63,140 bases of DNA from contig CBDESZ010000011.1 in assembly GCA_965242725.1 (NCBI GenBank), forward strand, positions 1-63,140, read 5' to 3'. This DNA is from Alkalispirochaeta sp. Lineage in GTDB: Bacteria; Spirochaetota; Spirochaetia; DSM-27196; Alkalispirochaetaceae. How positions within the stretch are numbered: position 1 is the first letter of the stretch; every line of letters begins with the position of its first letter. Positions 13,468-60,609 of the stretch are shown here, in pieces. The position numbers were made by a program, and so were the translations under genes. The notes under the pieces are model-generated. The model saw only the letters and a program-made list of their open reading frames with translations. It ran no database searches and was not told the DNA's origin.

Positions 13468-13625
13468 ACGAATCACGAAGATAAGGATACACCATGTCGG
13501 TGAATGGCGGGTGCAACATGGGTGTAACTCACGACCCATGGCGTAAGGTCTTTGAAATGCGGCGAAGATACCGAAAATGAATTATTATGTAGATGAGATT
13601 ATCCGGACGTGGGTGGGAGAACAGT

Positions 13626-22179: not shown

Positions 22180-23370
22180 TCACCGTCCGGGAAGCACGTA
22201 CGTTTTCAGGGGAGGAAAGCCGTTGAAGCTCACCGAGCTGTAGCTGTAGGTATAGGCGCCGGTGGTGAAGACGTAGACGCGATCACCCGTGGCGAGGGTG
22301 TCGGGCAATTCGTACTTGTAGTCCTGGTAGAGGACGTCCATGCTGTCGCAGGTCGGGCCGGCGAGTATCACGGGCTGCGCGATTCCCGTGCGCTCGGTGT
22401 ATATGGGGTACTTGATGAGCTCTCCCATCGTCTCAAGCATTCCGCCGAAGAGTCCGACGTCCAGATAGACCCACCGAAAGGGCGACACCTCGGACTTGCG
22501 GGAGGTCATCACCACCTCCGAGACGATCACCCCCGCATCGCCGACGATGGCGCGGCCTGGTTCGACGATGATCTGCGGCACCTCGTTCCCGAAACTGGAC
22601 CGGAGGTATTCGGCGATGGCCCGGGCGTACACCTCGATGTCGGGGGTGGGCTCGAGATAGTTGGCAGGGAATCCCCCTCCGAGATTGATCAACCCGAGGT
22701 TGATGGCGTGGTCGCGTTTCAGCGTCTCAAAGAGGTATGCGCATTTGGAGATCGCGTCGCCCCACTGGCCGATATCGCGTTGCTGGGAGCCGACGTGAAA
22801 GGAGAGCCCCCAGGGTGTCAGACCAAGGTCGCGCGCGAGAAGCGCGAGGCCCACCGTCACTTCAAGATGGGATCCAAACTTTCGTGAGAGCGGCCAGTCC
22901 GCCCCTTTGCCTTCAGTCAGCAGTCTGAAGCACACGCGGCAGCCCGGCGCACTCGCAGCCAGTTTGCGGAGATCCTCCTCGCAGTCGGTAACGTACAGGT
23001 CGACGCCGCGGTCGTGGAAATAGGCGACGTCGCGCTCCTTCTTGATCGTATTGCCGTAACTGATTCTCGCGGCGGGTACTCCCAGTGACAGGACCTGGTC
23101 GAGCTCGTACGGCGTTGCCACGTCGAAACTGGACCCGAGCTCTTTCAGGAGCAGAAGCACCTGGTCCATTGGATTGGCCTTGACCGCATAGTGCACCGTG
23201 GCAAAGGGCAGCCGGGACCTGAAGGTGTTGAACGCACGCTCCACAACTTCGAGATCCACGACGAGGAACGGCGTCTCGAGATTGGCAGAGAATGTCGCGA
23301 TTCGCCTCAGGCGCTCGGCCGGCATGAATCGCTCTACCGGGAAACTATACTGCTTAAGGACCTCGTTCAT
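22180..23370 (-). CDS. Fold-type III PLP ornithine/lysine decarboxylase
   Basis: HYAVKANP, FDVA, LSRKFG, SFHVGSQ, EPGR, GPTCDS, GAYT. Confidence 0.92.
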   Translation of the reverse strand: MNEVLKQYSFPVERFMPAERLRRIATFSANLETPFLVVDLEVVERAFNTFRSRLPFATVHYAVKANPMDQVLLLLKELGSSFDVATPYELDQVLSLGVPAARISYGNTIKKERDVAYFHDRGVDLYVTDCEEDLRKLAASAPGCRVCFRLLTEGKGADWPLSRKFGSHLEVTVGLALLARDLGLTPWGLSFHVGSQQRDIGQWGDAISKCAYLFETLKRDHAINLGLINLGGGFPANYLEPTPDIEVYARAIAEYLRSSFGNEVPQIIVEPGRAIVGDAGVIVSEVVMTSRKSEVSPFRWVYLDVGLFGGMLETMGELIKYPIYTERTGIAQPVILAGPTCDSMDVLYQDYKYELPDTLATGDRVYVFTTGAYTYSYSSVSFNGFPPLKTYVLPGR

Positions 23371-23485
23371 GTACGCGGTCGTCCGGTGCGGCACCGGACT
23401 GTCCACCACAAAATTTATACAGCGGATCGTGCAAAATCAAGCGGCGTCGATCCCGCCTTCACTAGCCCCGAGACGATACAACCCG

Positions 23486-24463
23486 CTATCGTTCTGCCTT
23501 CTTACCTACCGCGACGGCGAGGATGATAATGATTCCCCGAATGATCATCTGCTGGCTTACCGTGAGACCAGCTATAATGAGCCCGTTGTTTATCACCCCC
23601 ATGAGAAGTGATCCCATAATGGCGCCTACTACCGAGCCGGCTCCGCCGGAGAGCGAAGTGCCTCCAATGATAACCGCCGCAATTACCGAGAGCTCGTCCC
23701 CTTCTCCAAAAGTGAACCGGCCCGCCTGCATGCGCCCGGCGTAGAGAATCCCGGCGAGACTCGCGGCAATTCCAGAGATCGTGATCACCAGGAGTTTGAT
23801 ATTTCTGGTATTTACACCTGTATACGTAGCAGCCTGCTCGTTACCTCCGGTCGCGAGTACTCGTTTGCCGTAGGGTGTATGATTTAGCGTGTAATGGCCG
23901 ATCGCACCGATCACGATAGTCCAGAACAGGAGAATCGGTACGCCGAGGATATCACCCGAACCAAAGATGAAGTTGAAGCCTGGACTCAGGATCGGCACCG
24001 CAGCAGTGTTGGTGATCCACATGGCAAAACCCCGAGCGATGCTCATCATGCCGAGAGTGACAAGGAACGACGGTATACGTAAGCGAGTTATTATTAAGCC
24101 ATTGGTGCCGCCTACGATTGTGCCGACACCGAGACCGACAATCAGGCTCACCAGAATGCTGCCGGTCGCGTTGACCGTGAGGGCGGTGACAAGGGCGGCC
24201 ACAGCCGTGGTCGAGCCCACCGAGAGATCGATCTGCCCCGTTGCGATCACAAAGGTCATTGCAACCGCCATGATCGAAATCATCGCGGTCTGGCGGGCGA
24301 TGTTGAGGACGTTTGGAAGAGTCGAAAACCCCCGCTCCCGCAGTACGACCGCGAAGAAGATGAACACGACAACAAAGGCAACGTAGACGATGTACTTCTG
24401 CCAGTCGAACTGACGCAGGATTGTTCTGAACCCGACTGTGTCAGGCTTCGTGCTGGATTTCAT
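23486..24463 (-). CDS. Monosaccharide ABC permease (RbsC-like)
   Basis: GQIDLSVGS, IPSFLVTLG, GGNEQAA, ELSVIAAVIIGGTSLSGG. Confidence 0.93.
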   Translation of the reverse strand: MKSSTKPDTVGFRTILRQFDWQKYIVYVAFVVVFIFFAVVLRERGFSTLPNVLNIARQTAMISIMAVAMTFVIATGQIDLSVGSTTAVAALVTALTVNATGSILVSLIVGLGVGTIVGGTNGLIITRLRIPSFLVTLGMMSIARGFAMWITNTAAVPILSPGFNFIFGSGDILGVPILLFWTIVIGAIGHYTLNHTPYGKRVLATGGNEQAATYTGVNTRNIKLLVITISGIAASLAGILYAGRMQAGRFTFGEGDELSVIAAVIIGGTSLSGGAGSVVGAIMGSLLMGVINNGLIIAGLTVSQQMIIRGIIIILAVAVGKKAER

Positions 24464-25937
24464 GTTGTATCCTTTCCTCATCCAGATCTTCGGTGTTTCG
24501 GATAACCTTGGTGATACGACCGTTATGCATAACGAGTATGCGGTCGCACATCGCGATAAGTTCGGGGATCTCTGAGCTTACAACAAGCACGCCATGACCC
24601 GCGTCCGAATAGGCGCGAATGAACTCCAATACCTGAACCTTTGCCCCGATGTCTACTCCGGCTGTCGGTTCGTCAAGCAGCAGGAGTTCCGGTTCTCGGG
24701 TGAGCCATTTCGCGATTACCACTTTCTGCTGATTCCCGCCGGAAAGCAACGAAATTTTCCTGTCGATACCCTCTGTCTTTACGTTGTAGCGACTTATCGC
24801 CTCTCGAGTAAATCTCCGGGCAGCGCGATGCACGACCTTACCCATCCGTGTGAAGCGACTGATGTTGGGTAACGTCAGGTTTTCAAGTACCGAGTGACGG
24901 AGCACGAGACCCTTGAGTCTACGGTCGTCCGGAACGAGGGCAATACCGGCTTCCATTGCATCGGCAACGGATCCGATTGTCCTGTCGACACCATTGATGG
25001 TCACACTGTTAGTGCCAGGCGTGAGTCCGAAGAGCGTCTCCAGTATCTCAGTCCGGCCACTCCCCATGAGTCCGGCAATGCCAACGACCTCTCCGCGGTG
25101 CACTGTTATATCTGCCGGTTCTACGGGGACCGGGGTATCGACCTGGAGCCCCGTAACCGAAAAGAGAACCTCGGGATTGGTGTCCCGATGCCGGTAGCGA
25201 TATCCCTCCCCCGCTTCCCGGCCGATCATGTCGGTTATGACCTGCCTGATATCGGTCTCACCGGCGGCGCGTGTTGATACTATCTTGCCGTCCTTGAGGA
25301 CGGTAATACTGTCTGCGATCCGGAATATCTCTCCCATGCGGTGTGAGATATATACGATGGAAACGCCGTTTTCCTTGAGCCTGCGGATCAATTCAAACAA
25401 CGTGTAGGTCTCCTTATCCGAGAGGGACGCGGTCGGCTCATCCATAATCAGTATTCGCGCGTTTGTTGCGAGAGCTTTCGCGATCTCGACGAGCTGGGAA
25501 TCCCCGACCGTCAGATGCGAAACCTTCTCGTCCGGAGAGAGTTTGAGACCCAGAGACTCCAGTAGCTTGCTGGCACGTCGACGTTGCTCGCGGTCATCCA
25601 CGTGAATACCGCCACGGGTAAGTTCACAGCTCAGGAAAATATTCTCCGCTATCGTCATGGTCGGAATGAGACTGAGCTCCTGGAATATCATTCCGATCCC
25701 CGCCTCCCGAGCGTCTCCAAATCCTTTGAAATGGACCGCCTCGCCATGAACCCGCACTTCGCCGCCGTCGATGGTGTAGACCCCGGTGAGAATCTTCATC
25801 AAGGTCGACTTGCCCGCTCCATTGCCGCCCACGAGGGCTCGGACCTCACCTTCCTCCAGGGAAAAGTCGACGTCCTCGAGAACGGTTACGCCGCTGAACT
25901 GCTTAAACACCCCCGACATGTAAACAGCTTGTTTCAT
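24441..25937 (-). CDS. Monosaccharide ABC ATP-binding protein (RbsA-like, tandem NBD)
   Basis: GGNGAGKST, MDEPTASL, LSGGNQQKV, LDEPTAGVDIGAK. Confidence 0.94.
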   Translation of the reverse strand: MKQAVYMSGVFKQFSGVTVLEDVDFSLEEGEVRALVGGNGAGKSTLMKILTGVYTIDGGEVRVHGEAVHFKGFGDAREAGIGMIFQELSLIPTMTIAENIFLSCELTRGGIHVDDREQRRRASKLLESLGLKLSPDEKVSHLTVGDSQLVEIAKALATNARILIMDEPTASLSDKETYTLFELIRRLKENGVSIVYISHRMGEIFRIADSITVLKDGKIVSTRAAGETDIRQVITDMIGREAGEGYRYRHRDTNPEVLFSVTGLQVDTPVPVEPADITVHRGEVVGIAGLMGSGRTEILETLFGLTPGTNSVTINGVDRTIGSVADAMEAGIALVPDDRRLKGLVLRHSVLENLTLPNISRFTRMGKVVHRAARRFTREAISRYNVKTEGIDRKISLLSGGNQQKVVIAKWLTREPELLLLDEPTAGVDIGAKVQVLEFIRAYSDAGHGVLVVSSEIPELIAMCDRILVMHNGRITKVIRNTEDLDEERIQHEIQHEA

Positions 25938-25955
25938 ATGCTGCCTTCCGGAATA

Positions 25956-25988
25956 CCGGCGGGCGCGGGTTGAACCCGCGCCACCGGC
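25956..25988 (-). terminator. Stem-loop between the dehydrogenase and ATPase genes
   Basis: CCGG..GGCGCGGGTT-G-AACCCGCGCC..CCGG. Confidence 0.45.
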
Positions 25989-26001
25989 GTATCCGGCGTG
26001 C

Positions 26002-27168
26002 CTAGACGGCCACCCAGGATGCTTCGTCGTTCAGGCGCGTCACCGCGTCACAAATGCGCGCGATCGCATAGCCGTCCTCAAAGTTGGGGGACGGTTCGCT
26101 ATCTTCGACGATTGCCTTCATGAAATCGTGGCACTCCACGATCTTGGTGTCCGAGTAGCCGATCCCAAGAGCAGGGATGGGCCAGAGCGCATGGCCTTCG
26201 GGATGCGCAGCGCCGGTATAGATCGTTCGGAAACCACGACGGTCCCCGGGATCATCGGCATAGCACACCTGAAGCTCGTCTCGCCGCTCGTAGTTAAACG
26301 CTATGCTTCCCTTCTCTCCATGGATCTCGAGGGTAATGTAGTTGTTTCTGCCCCAGGCGTTCCGGGTCGCCTCGATACTTCCCACCGCTCCCGAAGCGAA
26401 CTTGCAGAGGAAAGACGCCTCGTCATCCACGTCCACCTTGCCGAGTCGCGTCCGGTCCTGAACTTGCACGGTACCGAGTTTGTCAGTGCCCCCGCTTTGT
26501 AGCGGCCGCTCGTGGATGTAGGTCTTCAGAAAGCCCGTCACGTGGGTTATATCACCCGCAAGGAAGCGGGCAATGTCTATCACGTGCGTCGCTATGTCTC
26601 CCAGCGCCCCGGACCCGGCCACGTCTTTCCTGAACCTCCACGAAAGCGGAGACGACGGAGAGGCAGACCAATCCTGGAGATAGGTGGCCCGGAAGTTCCG
26701 GATGGCGCCGATCTCTCCCTTTTCGATAATCTCCTTTGCGAGGAGAATCGCCGGAGTACGTCGATAGTTAAAGGCGAGCATGTGCTTCTTCCCGCTCGCC
26801 GCCGCCGCCTCGTGCATCGTTTTAGCTTCGTCCGCCGTTCGTGCGATCGGCTTTTCCGAGAACACGTGTTTACCCTGGCGGAACGCTTCTACAGCAATCG
26901 CGAGATGGAGATCGTTCGGCGTCGAGATATCGACAATGTCTATGTCCGGGTCGCCAACGGCAGCTTTCCAGTCGGTTCCGTAACGGCGGAACCCAAAGCG
27001 GGAAGCCGCGTCCCTTGCCGTACTCTCATCCACATCGACCAGCAACTCTCGGACGGGCATTGCCGGCGCGGGCCAATAGCACATGGGCATTGTGGCATAC
27101 GCCATTGAGTGCGCCTTGCCCATGAAACCTGCGCCGATCAGGGCGATCTTCAATTCTCTCATATTCAT
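26002..27168 (-). CDS. lgdA: Gfo/Idh/MocA oxidoreductase, probable levoglucosan dehydrogenase
   Basis: GFMGKAHS.AY..MPM.YWPAPA, PLSWRF, ERPLQSGG, EATRNA.GRNNYIT, FNYERRDELQV, RRGFRT.YTG.AHP, LWPIPALGIGY..TKI match the characterised LGDH sequence as I recall it. Confidence 0.85.
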   Translation of the reverse strand: MNMRELKIALIGAGFMGKAHSMAYATMPMCYWPAPAMPVRELLVDVDESTARDAASRFGFRRYGTDWKAAVGDPDIDIVDISTPNDLHLAIAVEAFRQGKHVFSEKPIARTADEAKTMHEAAAASGKKHMLAFNYRRTPAILLAKEIIEKGEIGAIRNFRATYLQDWSASPSSPLSWRFRKDVAGSGALGDIATHVIDIARFLAGDITHVTGFLKTYIHERPLQSGGTDKLGTVQVQDRTRLGKVDVDDEASFLCKFASGAVGSIEATRNAWGRNNYITLEIHGEKGSIAFNYERRDELQVCYADDPGDRRGFRTIYTGAAHPEGHALWPIPALGIGYSDTKIVECHDFMKAIVEDSEPSPNFEDGYAIARICDAVTRLNDEASWVAV

Positions 27169-27188
27169 TTCTCCCGTTGCTAGGTGCA

Positions 27189-28325
27189 TCAGTCCTTATA
27201 CGCTTCCCGCACGACGTCGGGCGCTTCCACGCTGTAAACCTCGATATAGGCGTCGAGCACATTCTGGTGCGTTACCGCCAGGGCCGGCACGGCCACATAG
27301 TCCGGCGCCTCTTTGCCAAGAAGAGCGTAGGCGGCGAGGATCGCTTCAGAAACACCCTGGTGATAGGGAAGCTGTGCTCCCAGCCCCTTGATGAGACCCT
27401 GAGCCGCGATTTCCCGGGCTGCGTTGTTGCCCAGGTCAATGGTCGTGATCACCAGATCATTTCGTCCGGCGTTGCGCGCCGAAGCGACCACAGATTCTGC
27501 GGGGACGTCCCAGACCGCAAAGATGCCGTCAATATCCGGATAGCGAGTCAGCATGGCGTCGGCAACCTCGCTCACCCGATTGGGATCGTTGAATCCGGCA
27601 CGGTCCACAATCGTGATACCGGGATACTCAGATGCAATCGTGGCCTCGAAAGCCTCCACTCGTTGGTTGGTCACGAAGAAATCCGCGTCAAAGTACACCA
27701 CACCTATGTTACCGCGCCCGCCAAGCTCCTCCGCCATGATGTGAGCAGCCGCCACGCCGTTACCGTAGTTGTCCGCGGAGACTACGCTCACGTAGTCTTT
27801 GCCGGGGCTCATGCCTGCGGCTACATTGTCCATAAAGACGATATGGACACCCGCATTTGCCGCACGACGGAACGCCGGGGCCGTAGACACCGGATCGACC
27901 GGGATACTGATGATAATGTCGGGAGAAAGCGCCATAATTGTCTCGATATCGGAAACCTGTTTCTCAGCGGAAAACTGCGCGTCCGTCACTGCGCGCACAT
28001 TGATGTTTAGTCGCGCAAACGTGTCCTCCAGACCTCGTAGTTGGGCGGAGGACCAGTCGTTCCCGGCGTAGTGAAAGGCGATCGCCGCTGTAGCATTCAT
28101 CTCCTGTACCTGAGCAACCTCGGTCGCGGTAAGACTGAGCTCCGAAGCAGGCGTTGCCTCTTCGCCGTTCGGACCGGTGCTCTGTATCTCCCCCACCGTT
28201 CGAACCTCTACCGAGATTGCCTCCGCCGGTGCGATCGGGACTTCCTCCTGGGCGCCACCGGCAAATGCGAAAGCCAGGCCGAACAACGTCAGCATCGTTA
28301 CGATTACCAATAACCTTGTGTTCAT
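27189..28325 (-). CDS. Sugar ABC substrate-binding protein
   Basis: Signal FAGGAQEE; STGPNGE.A, HYAGNDWS.AQ, VSADNYGNG, GIFAVWDVPA. Confidence 0.9.
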   Translation of the reverse strand: MNTRLLVIVTMLTLFGLAFAFAGGAQEEVPIAPAEAISVEVRTVGEIQSTGPNGEEATPASELSLTATEVAQVQEMNATAAIAFHYAGNDWSSAQLRGLEDTFARLNINVRAVTDAQFSAEKQVSDIETIMALSPDIIISIPVDPVSTAPAFRRAANAGVHIVFMDNVAAGMSPGKDYVSVVSADNYGNGVAAAHIMAEELGGRGNIGVVYFDADFFVTNQRVEAFEATIASEYPGITIVDRAGFNDPNRVSEVADAMLTRYPDIDGIFAVWDVPAESVVASARNAGRNDLVITTIDLGNNAAREIAAQGLIKGLGAQLPYHQGVSEAILAAYALLGKEAPDYVAVPALAVTHQNVLDAYIEVYSVEAPDVVREAYKD

Positions 28326-28369
28326 AAGAACCTCCTTACTATTCTTTGCCGCCATGCGGCCGAGTGCCG

Positions 28370-29179
28370 TTATTGAACGAGCTTGCGCACCTGGGTGTAC
28401 GCCTTTATGACACCCAGCTCGGGTTGGCCCGAGTACCCGTCGATTTCCACTGCGAGATCGCGGTGCTTTCCGTCGGACCCGAGCACCTCCAGGAGTGCCG
28501 GAAAGTCGATCTCACCATCGCCGGGCGGACAGAAGCGCCCTTCCGCAACGTCCTTGAGATGGACGTAGGGGACCCGATCCAGATGTCGCCGAACCACGTC
28601 GACTACATCGCTTCCGCCCGCATGGATGTGGCCGGTATCAGGACAGAGTTTTATACGCGAGTTCTCCATGATTGCATCGATCTCGTCCGATGTCTCAACG
28701 ATTGACCCCAGATGCGGATGGTAGAGCGCCGTAAGCCCATGATCCGTGGCAATTCGATCAGCCTCGTCGAGGACGGAAGCCATTTTGGAAATAAGTTGGA
28801 TTCGATCTGTCTCCATCACGGCGCCCCCGCCTATAACCAGGTACGTCGCACCGTGGGTACTAGCGACCTGGCATACCGTTTCGATCTTTTTCAGGTCCTC
28901 GGACACCACCTCCGAAAAGACAAAGGTTCCGCCGGTGTAGACCGCGCCCAGGGTGATATCGTGCGCGTCAAGCAGATCGGAGAGTTCTTGCGGCTTGTTA
29001 CGGTATTCCATAACCGTTCCATCAAACATTTCGAGATAGTCATAACCGGCTGCCTTTGCAAACGCCACCACCGACGGCAGGTCGCAGGGGGTCAGGTAAT
29101 AGGACTCCCGTACAGACGTCGCGGCTGCCGGATGTGCCACTACGTCGCCCCACACATTGATCATCAGTCCCAGTTTCAT
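28370..29179 (-). CDS. Sugar phosphate isomerase/epimerase TIM-barrel (LgdB-like 3-keto-glycoside lyase/hydratase)
   Basis: WG.VV.HP...TSV, EMFDG, YHPHLG, CPDTGH, HLKD; first gene of the lgdA operon. Confidence 0.75.
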   Translation of the reverse strand: MKLGLMINVWGDVVAHPAAATSVRESYYLTPCDLPSVVAFAKAAGYDYLEMFDGTVMEYRNKPQELSDLLDAHDITLGAVYTGGTFVFSEVVSEDLKKIETVCQVASTHGATYLVIGGGAVMETDRIQLISKMASVLDEADRIATDHGLTALYHPHLGSIVETSDEIDAIMENSRIKLCPDTGHIHAGGSDVVDVVRRHLDRVPYVHLKDVAEGRFCPPGDGEIDFPALLEVLGSDGKHRDLAVEIDGYSGQPELGVIKAYTQVRKLVQ

Positions 29180-29242: not shown

Positions 29243-29259
29243 AGCGACTACCGTGCCAA
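29243..29259 (-). promoter_or_regulatory. Sigma-54 (-24/-12) promoter of the sugar operon
   Basis: Minus strand TTGGCACGGTAGTCGCT (GG-N10-GC), ~65 bp upstream of ATG 29179, next to a sigma54 activator gene. Confidence 0.8.
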
Positions 29260-29444: not shown

Positions 29445-29465
29445 AGTGTCCAGTTTTCGGACACT
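29445..29465. promoter_or_regulatory. Palindromic putative enhancer (UAS) for the NtrC-type regulator
   Basis: AGTGTCC-N7-GGACACT perfect arms, ~190 bp upstream of the sigma54 promoter. Confidence 0.6.
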
Positions 29466-29514: not shown

Positions 29515-30846
29515 ATGGCCTCCATGACCGGACGAATTCTTATAGTTGACGACAATACAAAGCTCTGCGAGACACTCGCCGCCACGATTCGCTTTCGCGG
29601 CTACAAGGCAGACTGGGTCCATACCGTCGAAGACGCAAAGGAAGTGCTGCTTCACACCGAGGTAGATGTGATGCTCCTCGACGTCAGGCTCGGAGATGAG
29701 AGCGGACTGCCCCTTCTCGAGTATTGCACAAAGAGCAAACACGCCGTCAGCGTGGTGATGATCACAGCTTTCGGCACGATTGAGCTCGCTATGGATTCCA
29801 TGCGTAAGGGCGCCTTCGATTTCATTCAGAAGCCGATCAAGACTCCCCAGATGATGGAGGTGATCGAGAGAGCGCTAAAGCGTCGACGGCTGAATGACGT
29901 CTCCCACTCCCGAGGTGAGGGCCCGCTCATCGTCACGCGTAATCACGAAATGCGAAATCTTATCGAAAAGATAGAGGCAATAGCGGCAACCGAACTCCCG
30001 GTACTCATCTGTGGCGAAACGGGCGTCGGTAAAGAGCTCATCGCCGAACATATTCACCGCTCCTCAGCGAGACGAAGCAAAGTCCTCTCCAAAGTCAACT
30101 GCGCGGCGCTCTCGGAAAGCCTGCTCGACAACGAGCTTTTCGGTCACGAGAAGGGAGCGTACACCGGGGCCGATAGACTCTATCAGGGCATATTCGAGCA
30201 GGCCAACGGCTCCACGGTGTTTCTTGATGAGTTGGGTGACATGTCGCTTGCCATTCAGGCCAAAATCCTGCGGACCATACAGAATCGTGAAATCCGTCGG
30301 CTCGGTGGCAACGGCGTCATTCATGTGAACGTTCGTTTCCTCGGAGCAACGAACAAGAGCCTTGAGCAACTTATGGAGAGTGGAGAGTTTCGCCGGGACC
30401 TCTACTTTCGGCTTAGCGCCGGGATGTTCAATATTCCCTCCCTCCGCGAGCGCAGGGAAGACATCGCGCCTCTCGCTCAGTCGTTTGTGGATTCCTATAA
30501 CCGGGCAAACGATACGGAGTTTGTGCTCGGGGATAGCATAAAGGCGTTCTTCCAGACGTATCACTGGCCCGGAAACGTCCGGGAGCTGCAAAATGTAGTG
30601 AGCTTCGCGTGCGCTCTCTCCCGGACGCAAGAACTCGAGCCGCGAGACCTTCCTCCCTATCTCCACAAAAGCGGCAGGGGCAATACTTCTCTTCTGGAAA
30701 AGAGCGAACGGCAGACGATAGCGGCGACCTTGCGCGAGTACAACTACAATAAGGCTAAAGCTGCCAAGGCGCTTGGTATTAGCAGAACCACGCTCTACGC
30801 CAAGATGGAAAAGTATGGAATCGTCATCAAAGCTCGGCTTGAGTGA
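29515..30846 (+). CDS. Sigma-54-dependent response regulator (NtrC/AtoC family)
   Basis: Receiver (ILIVDD, LLD, QKP), GETGVGKE, ELFGHEKGAYTGA, WPGNVREL, Fis-type HTH LGISRTTLY. Confidence 0.96.
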   Translation: MASMTGRILIVDDNTKLCETLAATIRFRGYKADWVHTVEDAKEVLLHTEVDVMLLDVRLGDESGLPLLEYCTKSKHAVSVVMITAFGTIELAMDSMRKGAFDFIQKPIKTPQMMEVIERALKRRRLNDVSHSRGEGPLIVTRNHEMRNLIEKIEAIAATELPVLICGETGVGKELIAEHIHRSSARRSKVLSKVNCAALSESLLDNELFGHEKGAYTGADRLYQGIFEQANGSTVFLDELGDMSLAIQAKILRTIQNREIRRLGGNGVIHVNVRFLGATNKSLEQLMESGEFRRDLYFRLSAGMFNIPSLRERREDIAPLAQSFVDSYNRANDTEFVLGDSIKAFFQTYHWPGNVRELQNVVSFACALSRTQELEPRDLPPYLHKSGRGNTSLLEKSERQTIAATLREYNYNKAKAAKALGISRTTLYAKMEKYGIVIKARLE

Positions 30847-32677
30847 AAACTCGTTGCTCGCCGTTGAGGATGTCTCCTTGATCTTCAACGCCCGGGCGGG
30901 GCTGCACCATGTGGACCTGCACCTTGAAAGAGGCCGGATCTACGCGCTCTTCGGGGAGCACGGATCGGGCAAGACCACCCTGTGTGAGGTGCTCGCCGGC
31001 CTTGCGCAACCACAATCGGGGTCGGTTCGAATACACGGGAAGCCGACCCAGGGCTACACCTACGCCCGCGCTACCACGGCGGGTGTGCTGTTTGTTGATC
31101 AGGACGTGCTCCTCAACGAGAACATCACCGTCAACGATTTCTTCAACCTTCAGAATGCAGGTTACTTTCGTCACTTGTTCAGTTATCGCGGGCGGAACGC
31201 CAGGAAGGTAGGCAGGTTTCTCGACGATTACGGAATCGATATCTCTCCCACTGCTCTCATACGCAAGCTACCGATTCAGCAGCGCGTGCTCATATCCATC
31301 TTCCAGCGAATCTATCATGAACCGCTTGTGCTGATTCTGGATGAGAGCATCGACAAGCTTACCCTCGACAACAAGCGACTCGTCTATCGCGCGCTCCTGC
31401 GACTCCGGAAAGAGGGAAAGGCGGTCCTGCTGGCGACCCACGACACCCGGGATGTGTATGGTCTTGCCGATACCGTAGTCATCATGCGGGCCGGGGAAAT
31501 TGTCCTGCGCGAGTCGGTGAACCACATAGACGAGCTGAGTATCATTCGGATCGCCTATACCCAGGCCATGCAGGATAGCCGCGCCGGACGCTCAAACGCC
31601 GATTTCTACAGCCTGCTCAAGTTCAACCAGGCGATTCTCGAGCGCCTGCCGGTGGGGCTACTCATCCTCGACTACCGGGGTGTAGTTAAAAACGCCAACG
31701 CATCGTGTGAGCAGTTCTTTGGGGAGGACTCACTCAACGATAGAACCGTGGACGACCTCTTTGCCGGCAATCCGGCACTTCTCGACCGCCTTCGGAAGGG
31801 ATTTGAAAGTCGCACCGGCGTCTCTCTCATTGGCGTAACCTTTCAGATGGGAAGCGGCTACCTGACCCTCAACGTCGTCACCTACCCGGTGGTAGATGGA
31901 GATCACCTGCTCGGGCACGTCCTGATCCTCAGTGACGTCACCGAGCAGGAATTCCTCCGACAGAAGATCATCGTTTCAGAAAAGATGGCCGGCGTCGGGC
32001 TCCTTGCCGCCGGTGTCGCCCACGAGATTAACAATCCTCTGGAGGTTGTCATGAGCAGCTTGGACGCGATTAGACTCACCTCCTCGGAGGAGGACAAAGC
32101 CAAGTACCTTTCCTATATAGAGGAAGAGATTGACCGGATATCCAGGATCGTCGCCAATCTGGTCTCCTATGGCCGTACGGAACGCGACAATGGTGCCGTT
32201 GACACGATTTCCGTTGTACGGGAGGTCATCGCTTTGGTCGAACCCTACGCCCAGGCGCACTCAACGGAAGTCACGGTGGAGCTCCCGGATACCCCCCTTC
32301 CCCTCGTCGCCGTTAACGCTGCGGAGCTCAAGCAGGTTCTGCTTAACGTCCTCAAGAACTCCGTTCACGCCATCACCCATGAGAGGGGTCACATCCGAGT
32401 AATAGTCGCCCCCTCGAATGGACTTGATCGTATCCAAATCACTGTCGACGATAACGGGACGGGCATCGCTGAGGAGGCGCTGCAACAAGTTTTCATGCCC
32501 TTCTACAGCGCCGGACCACATGGCGGGTCGGGACTCGGCCTCTATATCTGTTACCAGATTCTCGAGAAACACGGCGGCTCGATCGAGTTCGTGAATAAGC
32601 GTTTGGGAGCGCGGTGCGTCATCGAGTTGCCCGCGGCGACTCTCACGGCGCGCCATGACAACTCATCCTCTATGTGA
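30839..32677 (+). CDS. Hybrid ABC-ATPase / PAS / sensor histidine kinase
   Basis: Walker A GEHGSGKTT, Walker B LILDE, LATH; PAS-like ILERLPVGLLILD..NAN; HisKA AAGVAHEINNPL; HATPase LLNVLKNS, DNGTGI, GSGLGL. TTG start assumed (ORF opens at 30773). Confidence 0.88.
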   Translation: MSENSLLAVEDVSLIFNARAGLHHVDLHLERGRIYALFGEHGSGKTTLCEVLAGLAQPQSGSVRIHGKPTQGYTYARATTAGVLFVDQDVLLNENITVNDFFNLQNAGYFRHLFSYRGRNARKVGRFLDDYGIDISPTALIRKLPIQQRVLISIFQRIYHEPLVLILDESIDKLTLDNKRLVYRALLRLRKEGKAVLLATHDTRDVYGLADTVVIMRAGEIVLRESVNHIDELSIIRIAYTQAMQDSRAGRSNADFYSLLKFNQAILERLPVGLLILDYRGVVKNANASCEQFFGEDSLNDRTVDDLFAGNPALLDRLRKGFESRTGVSLIGVTFQMGSGYLTLNVVTYPVVDGDHLLGHVLILSDVTEQEFLRQKIIVSEKMAGVGLLAAGVAHEINNPLEVVMSSLDAIRLTSSEEDKAKYLSYIEEEIDRISRIVANLVSYGRTERDNGAVDTISVVREVIALVEPYAQAHSTEVTVELPDTPLPLVAVNAAELKQVLLNVLKNSVHAITHERGHIRVIVAPSNGLDRIQITVDDNGTGIAEEALQQVFMPFYSAGPHGGSGLGLYICYQILEKHGGSIEFVNKRLGARCVIELPAATLTARHDNSSSM

Positions 32678-32723
32678 GAACATAGCGGACTGGACGGTGC
32701 ACCCTGACGGACCGTTCGGACGC

Positions 32724-34463
32724 CTACCGTAACCGCCCCTCCAGGGAGTACTCCGCCGCGGAATCATGGAGATACAGCGGCCGTACCTGGATAAAGTATT
32801 CTCCCGGTTCAAGATATTCTTCGATCTTGGCGTTCATGCCGTACCCGTCATCATCGCTGGAACGGATTTCCATCATGGACGCGTCGAAAAGCGTCATATA
32901 GGTGTCCACGTCCCCATAGGTTTCCACCGTCACCAGCTGACGCGCCGGTACATCGACCGTCTCGCCCGCGGGACCGGGAACCATGACGTGCGCCCAGTCG
33001 ACGTCGGACTCCGACGAGAAGGTATGCCGCTGGGGAGGATCGTTGAACGTCAACGGTGATGCGGTTTCGGCGGTGTTGTCCGGTTCGAAATCATCGTGCT
33101 GCAGCACAATCTGCTGGAGATGCAATGCGTAATCCCCCTCGGACCCGCCTCCGAAGCTGCCGACCTTGAGAAATCCGCCGGCCCCGTCGAGGGTGACTAC
33201 CAGTCTGGCGTTCCCTCCTTCGCCGCCGTCGTCGTTGTAGGCGATCTCCGTTCCCGCATCATCATAGAGGGTCATCGTCGTATCGAGATTCCCCGTCGTG
33301 TAGGCGACCACGGCACCGGTTTCGGCGGCATCGGCGGCATCGTCGCCGTCGCTCGGGGGAGAAAGTTCGGCGATCAATTCGGCGGAAATTCGATACCAGT
33401 CGCTGTCGCCGTTCGGTCGAATACTCCCGTATATCGGAAAGGAGTCGCCTGTAAGGAGCGTCGCGGTGTATCGGTCGTTATTGGGTTCCATGGAATCGAC
33501 GGCCAATCGGGAACGCTGGATGTACAGTTCGTAGGAACCCCGGGTGGAGGAGGAAAAGCCGCGGACCTTCACCCAATACCGTCCGCCGGCGGTGACGGGA
33601 ATGGAAACCGAGGCGTTCATGCTGTCTGCGTCGTCATTTTCGGTGATGAGGAGCCCTGGATCGTCCGGTCCGTATACCTCGATGTACGTATCGGTCGAAC
33701 CGGCGGTATAGATCCGCACCGCATCGATCATCTCACCGTCGCCACCGGAGATGACCGGCGCTCCACCGGCAGCTTCCGCCAGGAAGGTGAACCAGTCCTC
33801 GTCACCGTCGGTCTCGAAGGACAAGTTCTGATGATGCGAGTCCAGCGCCACTGCCCGCGCCTGGGACGCCGTATTCGGTACATCACCGTCGCCATCAAAG
33901 GCGGCGCCCCCGGACTGGACGGCGACCGCGGCGGATTGCCGAAGCGCGCCCGTCACATCGGTGGTCAACGGTGCCGAGACGCGCCCACCGACGAGAATAC
34001 GCCCTGCGCCGTCGTGGATCTGCAGGGAAAACAACACCCTTTCCGCACCGAAACCGGCGCGGACCCGTACCGTCAGGAGGGAGTTGGCGGCCGCGCCTAT
34101 TTCGCCCTGTCCGATATTCCCGATGGAAGCACGGTCGCTCAGAACCGCCACGTCCACCCGACTGCGCAATGATTCGGCGGCAATGAGCAGTTCTTCTTCA
34201 ATAATGCTCTCCATGAGATCGGCGATTCGCGGTGTCGTTCCGTCGACGGAAATTTCACCTACGTGAACGGCGATTCCCCCGGGAGGGAGCGGCTGGTCCA
34301 ATTGGGCCACCGCGTCCGGAAAAAGGCGACCGGCGGTCGCCCCGATATTCTCGACGAAATCGATAACCGGGTCCGCGGTCTCCTGCGCACTCACCGGCGC
34401 GGCGTACACTGCCATCACCAGCAAACCAATAAGGATTTTTCCATGAATAGATGTCGGGTTCAT
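32724..34463 (-). CDS. Secreted protein with three PPC-like (pre-peptidase C-terminal) repeats
   Basis: Signal peptide; repeats of (E)PN....A...D.DW...T.G..DT...LY/F....NDD....NA. Confidence 0.72.
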   Translation of the reverse strand: MNPTSIHGKILIGLLVMAVYAAPVSAQETADPVIDFVENIGATAGRLFPDAVAQLDQPLPPGGIAVHVGEISVDGTTPRIADLMESIIEEELLIAAESLRSRVDVAVLSDRASIGNIGQGEIGAAANSLLTVRVRAGFGAERVLFSLQIHDGAGRILVGGRVSAPLTTDVTGALRQSAAVAVQSGGAAFDGDGDVPNTASQARAVALDSHHQNLSFETDGDEDWFTFLAEAAGGAPVISGGDGEMIDAVRIYTAGSTDTYIEVYGPDDPGLLITENDDADSMNASVSIPVTAGGRYWVKVRGFSSSTRGSYELYIQRSRLAVDSMEPNNDRYTATLLTGDSFPIYGSIRPNGDSDWYRISAELIAELSPPSDGDDAADAAETGAVVAYTTGNLDTTMTLYDDAGTEIAYNDDGGEGGNARLVVTLDGAGGFLKVGSFGGGSEGDYALHLQQIVLQHDDFEPDNTAETASPLTFNDPPQRHTFSSESDVDWAHVMVPGPAGETVDVPARQLVTVETYGDVDTYMTLFDASMMEIRSSDDDGYGMNAKIEEYLEPGEYFIQVRPLYLHDSAAEYSLEGRLR

Positions 34464-37253: not shown

Positions 37254-38186
37254 CTATGTGATAAGACCGATTACCGCAGGAAGAACTATTAAACCTGGGA
37301 TGATGAACAATATTAAACGCGCCCACCCGCGCCAGAAATGTATTCTCCAACGTGACTTACCGTACTCGATCTCCGTTTTAGGAGACACCATCGATATGAA
37401 CGCAAGCAGAATCAAAGTGAGTCTGACCAAGGCCAGTGTTCGCAACGATGCATTCTCTCCGTCATCCGAAGTGTCGGCGTCATATCTAGCATGTAGGCGA
37501 GCCATTAAGACAATCAACTGACGTGAGTCAGAGTCCGTGATCTCATCCTGCGAGAGAATAGAACGCATGTCTTCCCGGATTAGTGCACGATCACCCCCTC
37601 CATCGACCAATTCGAGTGTCATCAAAAGAACGGTCGGAATCATGAAAGCTGCATAAAACCAATAACGAAGTCGCTGCCATCCGCTAACCAACAGCGACTC
37701 TCGATACTCACCGATCCACGAGTTGATTTTGTCCATACAGAATCGCTTTTCGTCTTCGCCCACGCCGTAGAAGTCGATTTTGAGTCCACCACCGCGATAG
37801 GAATAGAACGCAACCGTAACACTCGTACTTCGAAACGAAGCAGTACATGACAATGACTCCGCCTTCGAATCTTGAAGAGACAAATCTGACAATACTTCGC
37901 TAAGTGTTGCGCCTGTGATCTTCTTGCCGCCGGAAAGGTTGAGGATGCTTTCAAGTTGGTATCGCTCGCGTTCTTCCTTCAAGCCAGCTGAGATGTGCGC
38001 TTCGATTTCATCCTGCTCGTCGTTGTAGCGTTGCCAATAGTCTGCGAGCTCGACGCGTCGTTTCTCGTGCTCCTTGTCCCCAATTGTCTCAAATATCGCT
38101 GCCATTATCTCGTCGAGCACACGAGCCGAGCCTCTTGTTACGTAAAAGGGGCCATATTCATGATAATGGTTTGGCGTCTGAATCAT
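37254..38186 (-). CDS. Hypothetical membrane protein (lower GC, three C-terminal TM segments)
   Basis: 310 aa ORF with hydrophobic helices in the C-terminal half; no recognisable motif. Confidence 0.65.
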   Translation of the reverse strand: MIQTPNHYHEYGPFYVTRGSARVLDEIMAAIFETIGDKEHEKRRVELADYWQRYNDEQDEIEAHISAGLKEERERYQLESILNLSGGKKITGATLSEVLSDLSLQDSKAESLSCTASFRSTSVTVAFYSYRGGGLKIDFYGVGEDEKRFCMDKINSWIGEYRESLLVSGWQRLRYWFYAAFMIPTVLLMTLELVDGGGDRALIREDMRSILSQDEITDSDSRQLIVLMARLHARYDADTSDDGENASLRTLALVRLTLILLAFISMVSPKTEIEYGKSRWRIHFWRGWARLILFIIPGLIVLPAVIGLIT

Positions 38187-38236
38187 AAGGACAACATGTT
38201 ACTACGAAACAGAAGGTGACGCACGGGGTAGTCGCC

Positions 38237-38395
38237 GTCTAACGATGAGTTCTCCCGCCGACTCCGGCCCGGAGTGAAGCGGTGGGATTGGGGTGTTGAT
38301 TGCACGAGTCAGAACTCCGGATTCTGGATCAAACATCCCGAATTTCTGCAATCAAACGTGATAAAGGAACGTACGGTGAAACGACCGCATTATAT
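38237..38395 (-). repeat. attC-like imperfect hairpin between two accessory genes
   Basis: Minus strand ends in GTTAGAC (GTTRRRY); internal IR TTGATTGCA 38296-38304 / TGCAATCAA 38347-38355; inverse core degenerate (ATATAAT). Confidence 0.35.
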
Positions 38396-38404
38396 GGATG
38401 GTTT

Positions 38405-39664
38405 TCATCGTGGCAGTTTCGCTGGCGTGTAATTCGTAAAACTGTATCGTTGTAGCCCGTTATGGCTAATGTCGAAATACTTTCCGGTAAACTCCTTGTC
38501 GAGACTTGGGATCTTCCGGCCGAAGTTATTTCGGTCTTGCACCTTGAACGCACCTGCGGGTAAAGAAAACAGGACGTAGTCATCTGCAACCAACCGAATA
38601 CCACGGACCGTACGCGCAAAGTCTAGGTTAGTTTCGAAATAGATCATCGTGTTTTCTATGGCTGAAATACTCGGAAAAGGTCCGTCGTCAAATACGCGTG
38701 CAAGGAGCTGGATGCTCTGCAGGTTGGTGACAGGAGCCGACAAGTGGAAAACCGGTTGGTCGATAAGCGCCTCATACCTGAAGTCACCGATTGGACCTAC
38801 GCGAGACGTCTGATGGATGATTCTGTTTCCCGGTTCGGCCCAGACGGTGGTCGTAATGTTAATGAAATTTTGCTTAGTACTCCCGGACATGTGCACTGGA
38901 CTACCAGGAGTGCCCGCAATCGACAACGATGGGTTACCACCGTCAACTCTCCGACGAACATCTACGATTCTCATGATAAAAAAGAAATCGGAAAGATCGG
39001 TTTGGGACATCGGTCGGAGAAAATCAATCTGAAGTAGAAGTGCATTGAGGGCTTTTTGGCTCTCGGCGATAAACTCTATTCGGTTGATGCGGGAATCGAG
39101 TGACTTTAAGCCCGATGAAACGACCTGTTGGATTTCGGTTCCAAAACTGGCAAAAAACGCAAGTTGCTCTTCATCTCGCATCGTTATTCTGAGGTACTGA
39201 AGACGTATTGCGAATCCAGCAGGAGAACCATCAAGAAGTTGCCGAATTCTTTCGCGATAAAAAATGTCAGCAGAGGTAATTCCACTCGAATGGGCGTTGG
39301 CGATGAGACTTGCCACCTCATTCGGAGTCAGGTCGACGTTAGTAAGAAAAACAAACGCTTCGAGATCTGGATTTGCTTCGAGAGCGCGTTTAAGGTCATC
39401 TTCGAATTTCCTCTTGATGTATGTTTTATCATCCGATCCGTCATTCGGAGAATTCCGGAAACCGACCGCTGCGTAACAAACATGTCCATCGAACCGGCAC
39501 TCGATATCGCGACCACCATCGGGTCCACCTCGTGGGCGCCGTGGTTTGACTTCAGTAAATCTTGGATCCAACGTAAGCACGGCAGCGGAGAGACGTTCCC
39601 GATCGGTTTGATTACCATCTAGGTAAGTCCTTAGTCTTTCGTCGGTCAGTTTTGGATCGCTCAT
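38405..39664 (-). CDS. Protein with an N-terminal restriction-endonuclease-like (PD-(D/E)XK) domain and an unknown C-terminus
   Basis: ERL..AVL, PRGGPDGGRDI, FVFLTNVDLT, IFYRERIR. Confidence 0.6.
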   Translation of the reverse strand: MSDPKLTDERLRTYLDGNQTDRERLSAAVLTLDPRFTEVKPRRPRGGPDGGRDIECRFDGHVCYAAVGFRNSPNDGSDDKTYIKRKFEDDLKRALEANPDLEAFVFLTNVDLTPNEVASLIANAHSSGITSADIFYRERIRQLLDGSPAGFAIRLQYLRITMRDEEQLAFFASFGTEIQQVVSSGLKSLDSRINRIEFIAESQKALNALLLQIDFLRPMSQTDLSDFFFIMRIVDVRRRVDGGNPSLSIAGTPGSPVHMSGSTKQNFINITTTVWAEPGNRIIHQTSRVGPIGDFRYEALIDQPVFHLSAPVTNLQSIQLLARVFDDGPFPSISAIENTMIYFETNLDFARTVRGIRLVADDYVLFSLPAGAFKVQDRNNFGRKIPSLDKEFTGKYFDISHNGLQRYSFTNYTPAKLPR

Positions 39665-39851
39665 CTATCTACCTAGAACAATCTAATTGAATGGTTTTAA
39701 TTTCGTCAGTACATCCATATAACATCTTCCACTCCCCACTCTTCAGTATAATACCCCGTATCATGTCCAATCCCGCCGTACCATTTTCGTCTCTTTGTCA
39801 TAGTCTGAAGTTCCACTCACAAAATCCACACCCCATACACCCGCCGCCACA

Positions 39852-39960
39852 CAAACCCGCCCCACACCGCCGCGAGGCGCCGGTCCCCGGGGCAGATCGA
39901 CTGACGGATCACTGGCCCGAATTGCGGCCCCCGCGCAAACCCGCCCCACACCGCCGCGAG
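39852..39960 (+). repeat. Two-copy 25-bp direct repeat CAAACCCGCCCCACACCGCCGCGAG
   Basis: Exact copies at 39852-39876 and 39936-39960. Confidence 0.85.
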
Positions 39961-39981
39961 ATGCGGCCCCGCCCGCACTTC

Positions 39982-40740
39982 TCACAATCGCGACGCCCCC
40001 TCCCCCGCCACCACCTCCACAAGAAACGGCATCGCCCCTACCTTGGGCGGTTTATCAGGTCGGCGGACGTAGCGGCGGCTGGAGACGAGGATGCGGTAGC
40101 GTCCCGGGAAGAGGGATGGGGGAACGCGGCAGTGGACGTGGTTGCTGCCGGTCCTCGTGTAGAGCTCGGCCCGGACCGCGGTTTTTGGAATCGTAAAGGA
40201 ACCGGTCGCCGTCTCCGGCGGCGCAAACCAGACGCCTTCATCGGCGCCGGCCGCGTTGAAGGTTAGGTTCATACCGGTGACGCCCACGATATGTCCCGCC
40301 GTGACGACATGGAGCTCCTGCTTTGCCTCCAGGTCGGTCACGCCGTATACGGCGGGTGCACCGCGGTGTACGGTCGGCTGCGTGTCGATATGAAGTTGCC
40401 GGCGAATCTTCTCCTGGATGGACCGGGAGGGGAGAAACTTCAAAAAGGCGCGATCCGCGGAAATCTCCGGTTCACGGCGCCCGGCGCGGTGCATTCCCTT
40501 CACGTGTACGGCAAATGATCCAAAGGGAGTCCTCACGCGCATGCCGTCCGCGGCAAAGTAAATGAGCATCGCCTCAAAGCGCGCCATCACCGCCCGCATG
40601 TCCGTCTCGGAGAGGGCGGTATCCATCGCCATAAACTGCAGCAGTTCCGGATATTCCACGACCCGCCGATGTACAACCCGCGGCCGGAGCGTCCTGCCGC
40701 CGTCAAAGGTATTGTTCTGCAATGCAACCTGCAACGCCAT
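39982..40740 (-). CDS. HU-like DNA-binding domain plus C-terminal Ig-like (DUF4469-like) domain protein
   Basis: DTALSETDMRAV...DGMRVRTPFGSF HU-like segment; G..VGVTG.NL.F..A.DEGVWF and PGRYRI in the C-terminus. Confidence 0.6.
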   Translation of the reverse strand: MALQVALQNNTFDGGRTLRPRVVHRRVVEYPELLQFMAMDTALSETDMRAVMARFEAMLIYFAADGMRVRTPFGSFAVHVKGMHRAGRREPEISADRAFLKFLPSRSIQEKIRRQLHIDTQPTVHRGAPAVYGVTDLEAKQELHVVTAGHIVGVTGMNLTFNAAGADEGVWFAPPETATGSFTIPKTAVRAELYTRTGSNHVHCRVPPSLFPGRYRILVSSRRYVRRPDKPPKVGAMPFLVEVVAGEGASRL

Positions 40741-59915: not shown

Positions 59916-60609
59916 TTAGATACGGTATCCTTCTATAACCGTTTCCAATGAGCAGTTGGTGGCGTCATCAATCATGAAGATCTTCCCCAGACTCAGTATC
60001 ATCACACGGTCGGATATCTCAAGGGCTTTGGCGGCATTTTGCTCTGCAAGCATGACGCTTACGTTTTTCTTTTCGTGAATTTCCTTGATTTTCTCAAAAA
60101 AATTATCGACGTACAGCGGTGACAACCCGGAGGTGGGCTCGTCCAGAAGCAGCAGCGCCGGGTCCTGCATCAGCGCCCGACCGACGGCAACCATTTGCGC
60201 TTCTCCCCCGCTGAGGGTGCCGGCTTTTTGATTCAGGCGCGCTACAATATCAGGAAACAGTTCATAGACCTCTTCCAGTCGTTCCTGTTTCGGTCGTTTT
60301 CCTACAAGGCTTCCGATCGAAAGGTTTTCGGAAACGGAGAGATCGGGGAAAATGTGATATTCCTGCGGAACCATCGCCAGGACCCCTGGCCGCGAGCATA
60401 TGCGATTCGACATTTGTTACATCTTCGCCACGAAAATGGATTTCGCCGCTTTTCAACGGCAGTAATCGGGCGATCGTTTTCATAAGCGTACTCTTCCCGG
60501 CGCCGTTTGCACCAAGTACGGCGTAAATCTCGTGCTTAACCTCAAATGTCAAATTATGAAGAACAGTCACTTCACCGTAGCCGCTGGAAATTTCGTTTAC
60601 ACTAAACAT
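59916..60609 (-). CDS. livF: LivF-type ABC ATP-binding protein, frameshifted at ~60385
   Basis: GANGAGKST in ORF 60262-60609; LSGGEAQM, LDEPTSGL, AEQN in ORF 59916-60413. Confidence 0.85.

Follow-up and report, generated by a model that had tools for sequence, protein, structure and literature searches.

The 63,140-nucleotide stretch of Alkalispirochaeta sp. DNA analyzed here (contig CBDESZ010000011.1 of assembly GCA_965242725.1, referred to as the window) encodes a histidine kinase that has no membrane segment and begins with the nucleotide-binding domain (NBD) of an ATP-binding cassette (ABC) transporter. The kinase is a member of a real and conserved family, apparently uncharacterized, whose genes lie next to sugar transport operons of the CUT2 type, and it probably reads the neighboring sugar pump. 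The whole explanation that we propose is of a soluble dimeric kinase with a single input domain, derived from the first NBD (NBD1) of a CUT2 ATPase, that would work in a sigma-54 circuit and sense by contact of its NBD with the permease. In our judgment this explanation, taken in all its parts, falls slightly short of an even chance.

Architecture of the Kinase

Translation of the window gives an open frame that is uninterrupted from 30773 to 32677 on the forward strand. A preceding reading of the DNA from its letters and open reading frames (ORFs), here called the sequence-only reading, had placed the gene at 30839..32677. The continuous frame stands, and the TTG at 30839 is in frame and could serve as a start; the ATG at 30815 is most likely the true one, as the length of the N-terminus then matches that of the homologues. 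The resulting protein has 620 residues, and the first 32 nucleotides of its gene overlap the end of the upstream regulator gene, whose stop is at 30846. Pfam identifies ABC_tran at residues 30–178 (E 2.9e-19; 70.5 bits versus a cut-off of 25), as well as HisKA at 396–456 (E 2.2e-11) and HATPase_c at 503–607 (E 3.3e-22), both above cut-off. The PAS_8, PAS and PAS_4 matches at residues 271–378 are weak and below cut-off, and those to PAS_4 and PAS are stronger in the homologues than in the window kinase.

An AlphaFold2 (AF2) model built from a 32-sequence alignment has a mean predicted local distance difference test score (pLDDT) of 78 and a predicted template modeling score (pTM) of 0.45. It divides the chain into five parts, which are an NBD, a low-confidence segment, a PAS domain, the DHp helices and a catalytic ATP-binding (CA) domain, with the boundaries given in Table 1. 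Foldseek finds that the C-terminal part resembles PAS/LOV kinases. No transmembrane helix is found in the kinase, where the maximum 19-residue Kyte–Doolittle mean is 1.35 and the domains fill the chain. Pfam, the model and hydropathy thus bear out the earlier description of one soluble ORF with an ABC NBD, a PAS-like segment and a complete HisKA/HATPase core.

The kinase core is strictly conserved. H403 and the flanking AHEINNPLE are invariant in all 32 family sequences, as are N511, N515, D546, G548, G550, F563 and G573-L574-G575, which make up the N, G1, F and G2 boxes. Histidine kinase activity is therefore to be expected. Mean column identity is 0.65 in the DHp helices and 0.43 in both the PAS core and the helical subdomain of the NBD (residues 97–170). 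The pLDDT is <50 across residues 251–270, within which conservation is uneven; residues 251–259 have a mean column identity of 0.27, and residues 260–279 one of 0.71. The conserved N-cap helix of the PAS domain begins at about residue 260, and the variable part of the tether is 251–259.

A Conserved Family

A fusion of this kind could be an assembly chimera, as the sequence-only reading itself had considered, or a functionless, decaying gene. The data leave this explanation virtually no room. ABC_tran and kinase domains occur together in 109 of the best 120 database clusters, the window's own included, in proteins of ~600–650 residues with 28–39% identity. The kinase boxes are all invariant, as described above, and composition is even across the gene, with no break. 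Independently assembled Logan contigs of two runs, which come from one sample that may be the source of this DNA, cover 30600–32700 in one piece with 0 differences. We have therefore rejected both the chimera and the decaying fusion. A third run, X4, from a soil metagenome, gave only three short pieces of 34–151 nucleotides.

Family size was gauged with a family-specific query, kinase residues 215–390 (linker–PAS), in a search of 1.84 billion sequences. This query retrieves 243 representatives at E ≤1e-3 and 110 at E ≤1e-10, most of them ~600–625 residues long with the match at ~205–395. Among 254 proteins that match the query, 175 show the full-length layout, and 169 of those 175 contain Walker A; the remainder of the 254 are mostly fragments or multi-PAS proteins. 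Six shorter proteins of 360–470 residues (P0126, P0132, P0106, P0141, P0144 and P0146) have the linker–PAS and the H-box and lack Walker A, with matches that begin at residues 19–84. They are either contig-end fragments or NBD-less forms. Overall, the family is present in at least ~100 sequence clusters and in several phyla, with source names that include Treponema, Spirochaetes, Desulfomarina, Spartobacteria and KSB3. In the databases these proteins are called "ATP-binding cassette domain-containing protein" or bear the names of their parts. Full-text literature searches, which most subscription journals lie beyond the reach of, found no published description of an NBD-fused kinase, consistent with the earlier statement that no characterized example of this architecture was known.

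The fusion also recurs, patchily, among relatives. Full-length homologues occur in 12 of 40 related genomes, with 17 genes in total and up to three per genome, and none exceeds 35% identity even inside the genus. In a 300-genome sample of the phylum, near-full-length matches are present in at least 11 genomes, a lower bound because only four candidates were scored per genome. The genome that contains the window has one copy of the kinase versus ~14 tandem CUT2 ATPases. Two homologues, G002:C64:33009-34841 and G320:C2:14728-16554, each have one in-frame stop inside the match (TGA and TAA, respectively), and may be pseudogenes or reflect sequencing errors.

Motifs and Origin of the NBD

The nucleotide-binding motifs reported from the letters alone are all present in the kinase. 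Walker A (GEHGSGKTT) spans residues 47–55, Walker B (LILDE) 173–177, the H-loop histidine is H209, and LPIQQ occupies the position of the signature at 152–156; the Q-loop residue is Q96. Across the 32 family sequences, K53 is conserved in 32, Q96 in 30, D176 in 31, E177 in 30 and H209 in 29. The LSGGQ signature is not kept in the family. Its serine position is occupied by S in 11, N in 11 and T in five of the 32 sequences, and its second-glycine position by S in 18, Q in six and P in five, with glycine kept in two. The D-loop, a SALD-like sequence that follows Walker B, is replaced by a conserved L-E-K-L-S. With Walker A, Walker B and the Q- and H-loops kept and the signature and D-loop lost, the NBD looks able to bind nucleotide and unable to complete a canonical hydrolytic sandwich with its own copy. 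One protein, P0112 (alignment A1, row 29), no longer has the glycines of Walker A, the D-E order of Walker B or the histidine of the H-loop, yet retains the full architecture; it sits on a very long branch of the NBD tree described below.

These residues bear on whether the NBD of the kinase acts as a functional transport ATPase, energizing the permease, with signaling as a by-product. The conserved Walker A, Q-loop, Walker B glutamate and H-loop would suit such a role, but the loss of the signature glycine in all but two of 32 sequences, together with that of the D-loop, and the fact that the annotated neighboring operons each have an ATPase of their own, make it very improbable, and on these grounds we reject it.

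The pLDDT across the NBD is mostly 86–96, and the modeled domain is a complete NBD fold that includes the helical subdomain, with Foldseek TMt values of 0.85–0.86 to LptB and 0.78 to 1gaj. In NCBIfam, kinase residues 10–260 align to positions 1–246 of the CUT2 ATPases YtfR, LsrA, AraG, MglA, XylG and RbsA, with scores far under the equivalog cut-offs (for example, 116.5 versus 850 for YtfR). The kinase has one ABC_tran domain and is not the tandem of ~500 residues that is typical of CUT2. A tree from a quick maximum-likelihood search, with supports from the Shimodaira–Hasegawa-like approximate likelihood ratio test (SH-aLRT), included the NBDs of 32 kinases, the NBD1 and NBD2 halves of neighboring tandem ATPases (12 of each), two ATPases with a single NBD and an outgroup sequence. 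In this tree the 32 kinase NBDs fall together in a single clade (SH-aLRT 100), whose long branch emerges from among the NBD1 sequences, and the NBD2 sequences form a separate group (SH-aLRT 99). This placement points to a single origin of the kinase NBD from the N-terminal half, NBD1, of a CUT2 ATPase. The PAS-DHp-CA portion would then stand where NBD2 is found in the ATPase.

Probable Regulatory Circuit and Conserved Neighborhood

The genes around the kinase (Table 1) fit a local sigma-54 circuit. The upstream regulator matches Response_reg at residues 8–117, Sigma54_activat at 139–302 and HTH_8 at 394–434 in Pfam, and its translation shows the receiver aspartate D56, a GAYTGA loop and the Walker A sequence GETGVGKE. 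The genome contains rpoN (403.8 bits versus a cut-off of 277). The divergent operon, 29179..23486 on the reverse strand, is a CUT2-type sugar ABC transporter by Pfam. Its ATPase has best NCBIfam matches among xylose, multiple-sugar, arabinose and ribose ATPases, with the signatures LTVGD in NBD1 and LSGGN in NBD2, and NBD2 carries R for K in its Walker A. Judging from the GFO/IDH/MocA and TIM-barrel enzymes of the operon, the substrate may, as a guess, be of an inositol, polyol or ketose type. The element before the operon has GG and GC at canonical spacing and differs at two positions from the −24/−12 consensus. Pfam and this match uphold the arrangement noted earlier, in which the kinase overlaps the stop of an NtrC-type regulator and is divergent from a sugar ABC operon with a sigma-54 promoter. 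Between the regulator gene and the promoter is a perfect 6+6 palindrome, GTGTCC-N7-GGACAC, which was not reported by the repeat search at its length threshold. On the same strand as the operon, the permease is followed by an Orn/DAP/Arg decarboxylase (22180-23409), an odd companion for a sugar operon, and beyond it by an AraC-type regulator with a cupin domain (21175-22047).

In this circuit, the kinase would phosphorylate the NtrC-type activator encoded directly upstream, and the phosphorylated activator would drive transcription of the divergent sugar ABC operon from its sigma-54 promoter. Family knowledge and conserved gene context, from which we infer the phosphotransfer, the regulon and the direction of regulation, make it very likely that the signal passes from the kinase through the activator to the sigma-54 promoter of the neighboring CUT2 operon.

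Table 1. Coordinates of the kinase, its domains and the neighboring circuit in the window
Feature	Position	Strand	Basis or remark
NBD-PAS-histidine kinase	30815..32677	+	620 residues; TTG 30839 = alternative in-frame start
ABC nucleotide-binding domain	30851..31558	+	residues 13-248; Pfam, NCBIfam, AF2, Foldseek
NBD-PAS tether	31565..31624	+	residues 251-270; low model confidence
PAS domain	31625..31936	+	residues 271-374; weak Pfam matches and modeled PAS fold
DHp (HisKA) helices	31940..32170	+	residues 376-452; putative phospho-acceptor H403; Pfam HisKA
CA (catalytic ATP-binding) domain	32204..32635	+	residues 464-607; Pfam HATPase_c
NtrC-type sigma-54 activator, putative cognate response regulator	29515..30846	+	REC + AAA+ + HTH_8
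Candidate activator-binding palindrome, GTGTCC-N7-GGACAC	29446..29464	.	found by eye; ~190 nucleotides upstream of the −24 element
Sigma-54 type −24/−12 promoter element	29243..29258	-	TGGCAC-N5-TCGCT; 64 nucleotides before operon start 29179
Xylose-isomerase-like TIM-barrel enzyme, first operon gene	28370..29179	-	Pfam AP_endonuc_2
Periplasmic sugar-binding protein	27189..28355	-	Pfam Peripla_BP_4; N-terminal hydrophobic signal peptide read in the sequence
GFO/IDH/MocA oxidoreductase	26002..27189	-	Pfam
Tandem-NBD CUT2 ATPase of the transporter	24441..25937	-	two ABC_tran domains
Permease, single gene	23486..24481	-	Pfam BPD_transp_2

The same context is found in other genomes. We compared 21 related loci, 17 of them fetched from the related genomes and the other four (L001, L002, L012 and L036) being the family members among 80 loci from a contig scan, which was made with the full alignment and caught the generic kinase pattern. 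In 20 of the 21, the gene immediately upstream on the same strand encodes an activator homologue; the exception, L100, begins at the kinase because of a contig end. A CUT2-type ATPase is present within the stretch in 19 of the 21, and L097 and L100 are without upstream flank. Pfam annotation of 103 neighboring ORFs in 14 loci (L093–L106) gives a binding protein, an ATPase, one permease and sugar enzymes each time. The ATPase is a tandem in 12 of these loci and a single NBD in L103 and L105, and the sugar enzymes include aldose epimerase, GFO/IDH/MocA, TIM barrel, FGGY kinase and DAO proteins. Where a genome has several kinase paralogues, up to three, each is beside its own CUT2 operon. The link to sugar ABC operons on which the sequence-only reading depended therefore extends to the homologues.

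Promoter elements were sought with GG and GC fixed and up to two mismatches allowed. Of 22 loci, 17 have such a match either directly before the ABC operon or within the divergent gap, and in L101 and L002 sites with three mismatches are in place. By simple arithmetic, the chance of a match in a given 100-nucleotide stretch on one strand is ~0.6%.

Some loci depart from the common layout. In L012:4995-11737, two NBD-kinase/activator modules stand back to back on opposite strands, with a CUT2 ATPase and permease outside each, which is direct evidence that entire modules duplicate or assemble side by side. In L103:12304-17625 and L105:12442-17523, the single-NBD ATPase of 266–271 residues is accompanied by a longer permease of 415–419 residues and then by a methyl-accepting chemotaxis gene; in L105, a TRAP transporter (DctP/DctM) lies downstream of the kinase.

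How the Kinase May Sense the Pump

The sequence-only reading had the soluble kinase dock on the permease through its own NBD, or bind the transporter ATPase, and report transport activity to the activator. We favor docking on the permease because the input domain is specifically a derivative of CUT2 NBD1, the kinase family is tied to CUT2 operons, each paralogue is beside its own pump, and the complete NBD fold is kept with its helical subdomain. With one permease gene per operon, the permease is expected to be a symmetric dimer, which a kinase dimer could match. In such a mechanism, the two NBDs of the kinase dimer would dock onto the cognate permease dimer at its coupling helices, each serving as an ATP-binding, poorly hydrolyzing stand-in for the real ATPase. 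Docking of the sugar-loaded binding protein, or transporter occupancy, would alter the spacing or release of the NBDs, and this change would pass to the kinase core via the conserved helix that precedes the PAS domain. We put this sensing step forward tentatively. It is more doubtful, though conceivable, that some of the permease dimers carry a kinase dimer where the ATPase would otherwise be, as dedicated, non-transporting "sensing transporters" in which each paralogue is matched to its own pump. From the cytoplasmic side, these would detect the docking of the binding protein and turn on the sigma-54 operon that encodes the pump itself.

The proposed contact was modeled by complex prediction with kinase NBD residues 1–262 and two copies of the permease, using custom alignments, a job unlike those in the calibration set. 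The score is 0.50 (runs of 0.42, 0.51 and 0.50) versus 0.01 for the best control, which amounts to weak support; at least 58% of contacts are shared between runs, and the partner has a pLDDT of at least 76. In calibration, 116 of 157 solved complexes and two of 215 mismatched pairs attained the mark; those that attained it with a score of ≤0.60 comprised just 18 of the 157 solved complexes and both mismatched pairs that passed. As NBD–permease complexes have already been solved, the pass may show likeness alone.

Several observations weigh against the proposed explanation. The docking prediction returned no interface. Each annotated neighboring operon has its own ATPase, so that the transporter is complete without the kinase NBD, which could reach the permease only in competition. 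The variable tether, modeled at low confidence, suits tethering of the NBD better than rigid transmission of a signal, and without the signature and D-loop the NBDs should be impaired in closing in response to ATP, the movement to which transporter conformations are normally coupled. The conserved neighborhood could be explained by the regulon alone, without physical contact. As to origin, the join between the kinase NBDs and NBD1 has a support of only 85, in a quick tree. As to the promoters, −24/−12 matches overall are not above shuffled sequence (49 versus 44.8; about one per 8 kb), so that only their position is informative, and for several loci that position was judged by eye against tblastn starts, the ORF calls being over-extended.

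Some of these points would be accommodated if the NBD never contacts the transporter and is instead a cytoplasmic module that responds to nucleotide (ATP/ADP, the energy state) or dimerizes in an ATP-dependent manner, with sugar specificity supplied by the PAS domain, which would bind a metabolite or the sugar that is taken up. Retention of the nucleotide motifs with loss of the signature that completes hydrolysis suggests a binder rather than an enzyme, the PAS core varies among paralogues (mean column identity 0.43) as ligand-specific pockets do, a flexible tether fits a regulatory appendage, and the regulon accounts for the neighborhood. What this leaves unexplained is why the input domain descends from CUT2 NBD1 and why the family is strictly tied to CUT2 operons and not to other sugar systems. 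The degenerate P0112, one of 32 members, keeps its architecture after losing its nucleotide motifs, which argues against nucleotide sensing as a universal role. The helical subdomain of ABC ATPases faces the permease. In the kinases this subdomain is retained and is the most variable part of the NBD (0.43). Considering both sides, we regard this reading, the main rival to docking, as rather unlikely.

A further possibility is that the kinase NBD pairs with the transporter ATPase, as a mixed NBD dimer or by surface binding, and reports ATPase cycling. In the neighboring ATPase, the canonical signature, LSGGN, is on NBD2, whose Walker A has R for K, and an NBD1-like domain with an intact Walker A would be the natural partner for it. 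The ATPases of L103, L105 and L109 match only as single NBDs (confirmed by Pfam for L103 and L105) and must dimerize in trans, so that mixed dimers are conceivable there. In tandem ATPases, however, NBD1 and NBD2 are covalently linked and presumably pair together, and the D-loop, which lies at the dimer interface, is remodeled in the kinase family. Pairing of this kind seems to us quite improbable.

Comparison with Known Systems

Several described systems resemble this kinase in part. BceS is a membrane kinase and a separate polypeptide that contacts the permease BceB, and its partner is an OmpR-type regulator. In a review account of BceRS-BceAB of Firmicutes, a histidine kinase that lacks its own ligand-binding sensor monitors an ABC transporter and induces the genes for that transporter (PMC6978683). 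By function, the window kinase would be similar, as a transporter-coupled kinase that controls the genes of that transporter. It differs in being soluble, in carrying a covalent NBD, in acting with a sigma-54 activator and in belonging to a binding-protein-dependent sugar importer, and it lacks the two transmembrane helices of Bce-type intramembrane-sensing kinases. In the PstSCAB-PhoU-PhoR/PhoB system of Escherichia coli, a PAS kinase that lacks a periplasmic sensor is under the control of an ABC importer, exerted via the importer's ATPase side, PstB, according to the same review (PMC6978683). The Pst system requires the adaptor PhoU and has a membrane-anchored PhoR, whereas here the ATPase-like domain is inside the kinase; no member of the PhoU family is among the Pfam matches in the window or in the 14 annotated related loci.

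The sequence-only reading had stated that kinases coupled to ABC transporters are separate polypeptides. This holds for the systems above, but kinases fused to a transporter part do have precedent. One such case also shares the type of regulator, as CbrB is a sigma-54 activator. An SLC5 symporter domain is fused to a PAS-type sensor kinase in CbrA (PMC7096432) and to a kinase in CrbS (PMC5715377). The resemblance is the covalent fusion of a transporter part to a PAS-type sensor kinase. The difference is that the fused part of CbrA/CrbS is a whole membrane symporter, itself transporting histidine, whereas the window kinase carries nothing more of an ABC transporter than the cytoplasmic motor domain, with no membrane segment. 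Neither an SLC5 nor a STAC domain is matched by Pfam N-terminal to the kinase core, and no transmembrane helix is present there. The NBD kinase thus belongs to none of the Bce, Pst-PhoU-PhoR and CbrA/CrbS groups, having no transmembrane kinase part, PhoU or SLC5 domain.

Its parts have closer relatives. Like RbsA, XylG, AraG and YtfR, the NBD aligns over the full length of the first half of CUT2 ATPases, groups with NBD1 in the tree and has a complete NBD fold; unlike them, the kinase has a single NBD, has lost the signature and D-loop, and has PAS-DHp-CA in place of NBD2. The C-terminal 340 residues of the kinase align to the NCBIfam model of AtoS (E 1.7e-62), and the regulator aligns to that of AtoC (E 7.4e-103), with scores so far below the equivalog cut-offs that they indicate likeness and not membership. 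AtoS is a membrane protein without an NBD, whereas the window kinase carries an NBD and has no membrane segment. Among spirochete systems, AtcS of Treponema denticola was considered as a relative and set aside, since it is reported to be a membrane kinase without a sensing domain and is unrelated (PMC12070737). The same report describes Hpk2/Rrp2 of T. denticola as a PAS kinase with a predicted sigma-54 activator (PMC12070737).

Other Features of the Window

Convergent with the kinase is a gene at 32724-34463 (−) for a protein of 579 residues, in which only a C-terminal PPC (pre-peptidase) domain is recognized and the first ~500 residues are without a Pfam match. In a Liv-type operon, the ORF at 59916-60413 (−; 165 residues), beside 60657-61370 (−), matches only positions 54–137 of ABC_tran and may be a truncated or frameshifted ATPase or have a mis-called start. 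The regions 10119-13539 and 37254-40740 contain sizeable ORFs (428, 720, 310, 419 and 252 residues) without a Pfam match at E ≤1e-6.

Implications

Sensing by kinases coupled to transporters is known from few systems, namely Bce, Pst/PhoU/PhoR, DctA/DcuS and CbrA. In these, separate partners, or a fused part that is an entire membrane protein, make the coupling surface difficult to locate. In the family described here, the candidate coupling element is a soluble and well-understood ABC NBD that is attached directly to the kinase, so that the reading of an ABC importer by a kinase becomes directly testable. Such sensing would explain how many CUT2 pumps, with ~14 tandem ATPases in this genome, could be induced individually without membrane sensors. 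If the NBD proves to be a mere nucleotide-binding regulatory module, it would still represent a new class of kinase input domain; if docking is true, an ABC motor domain would have been turned into a signal-input domain.

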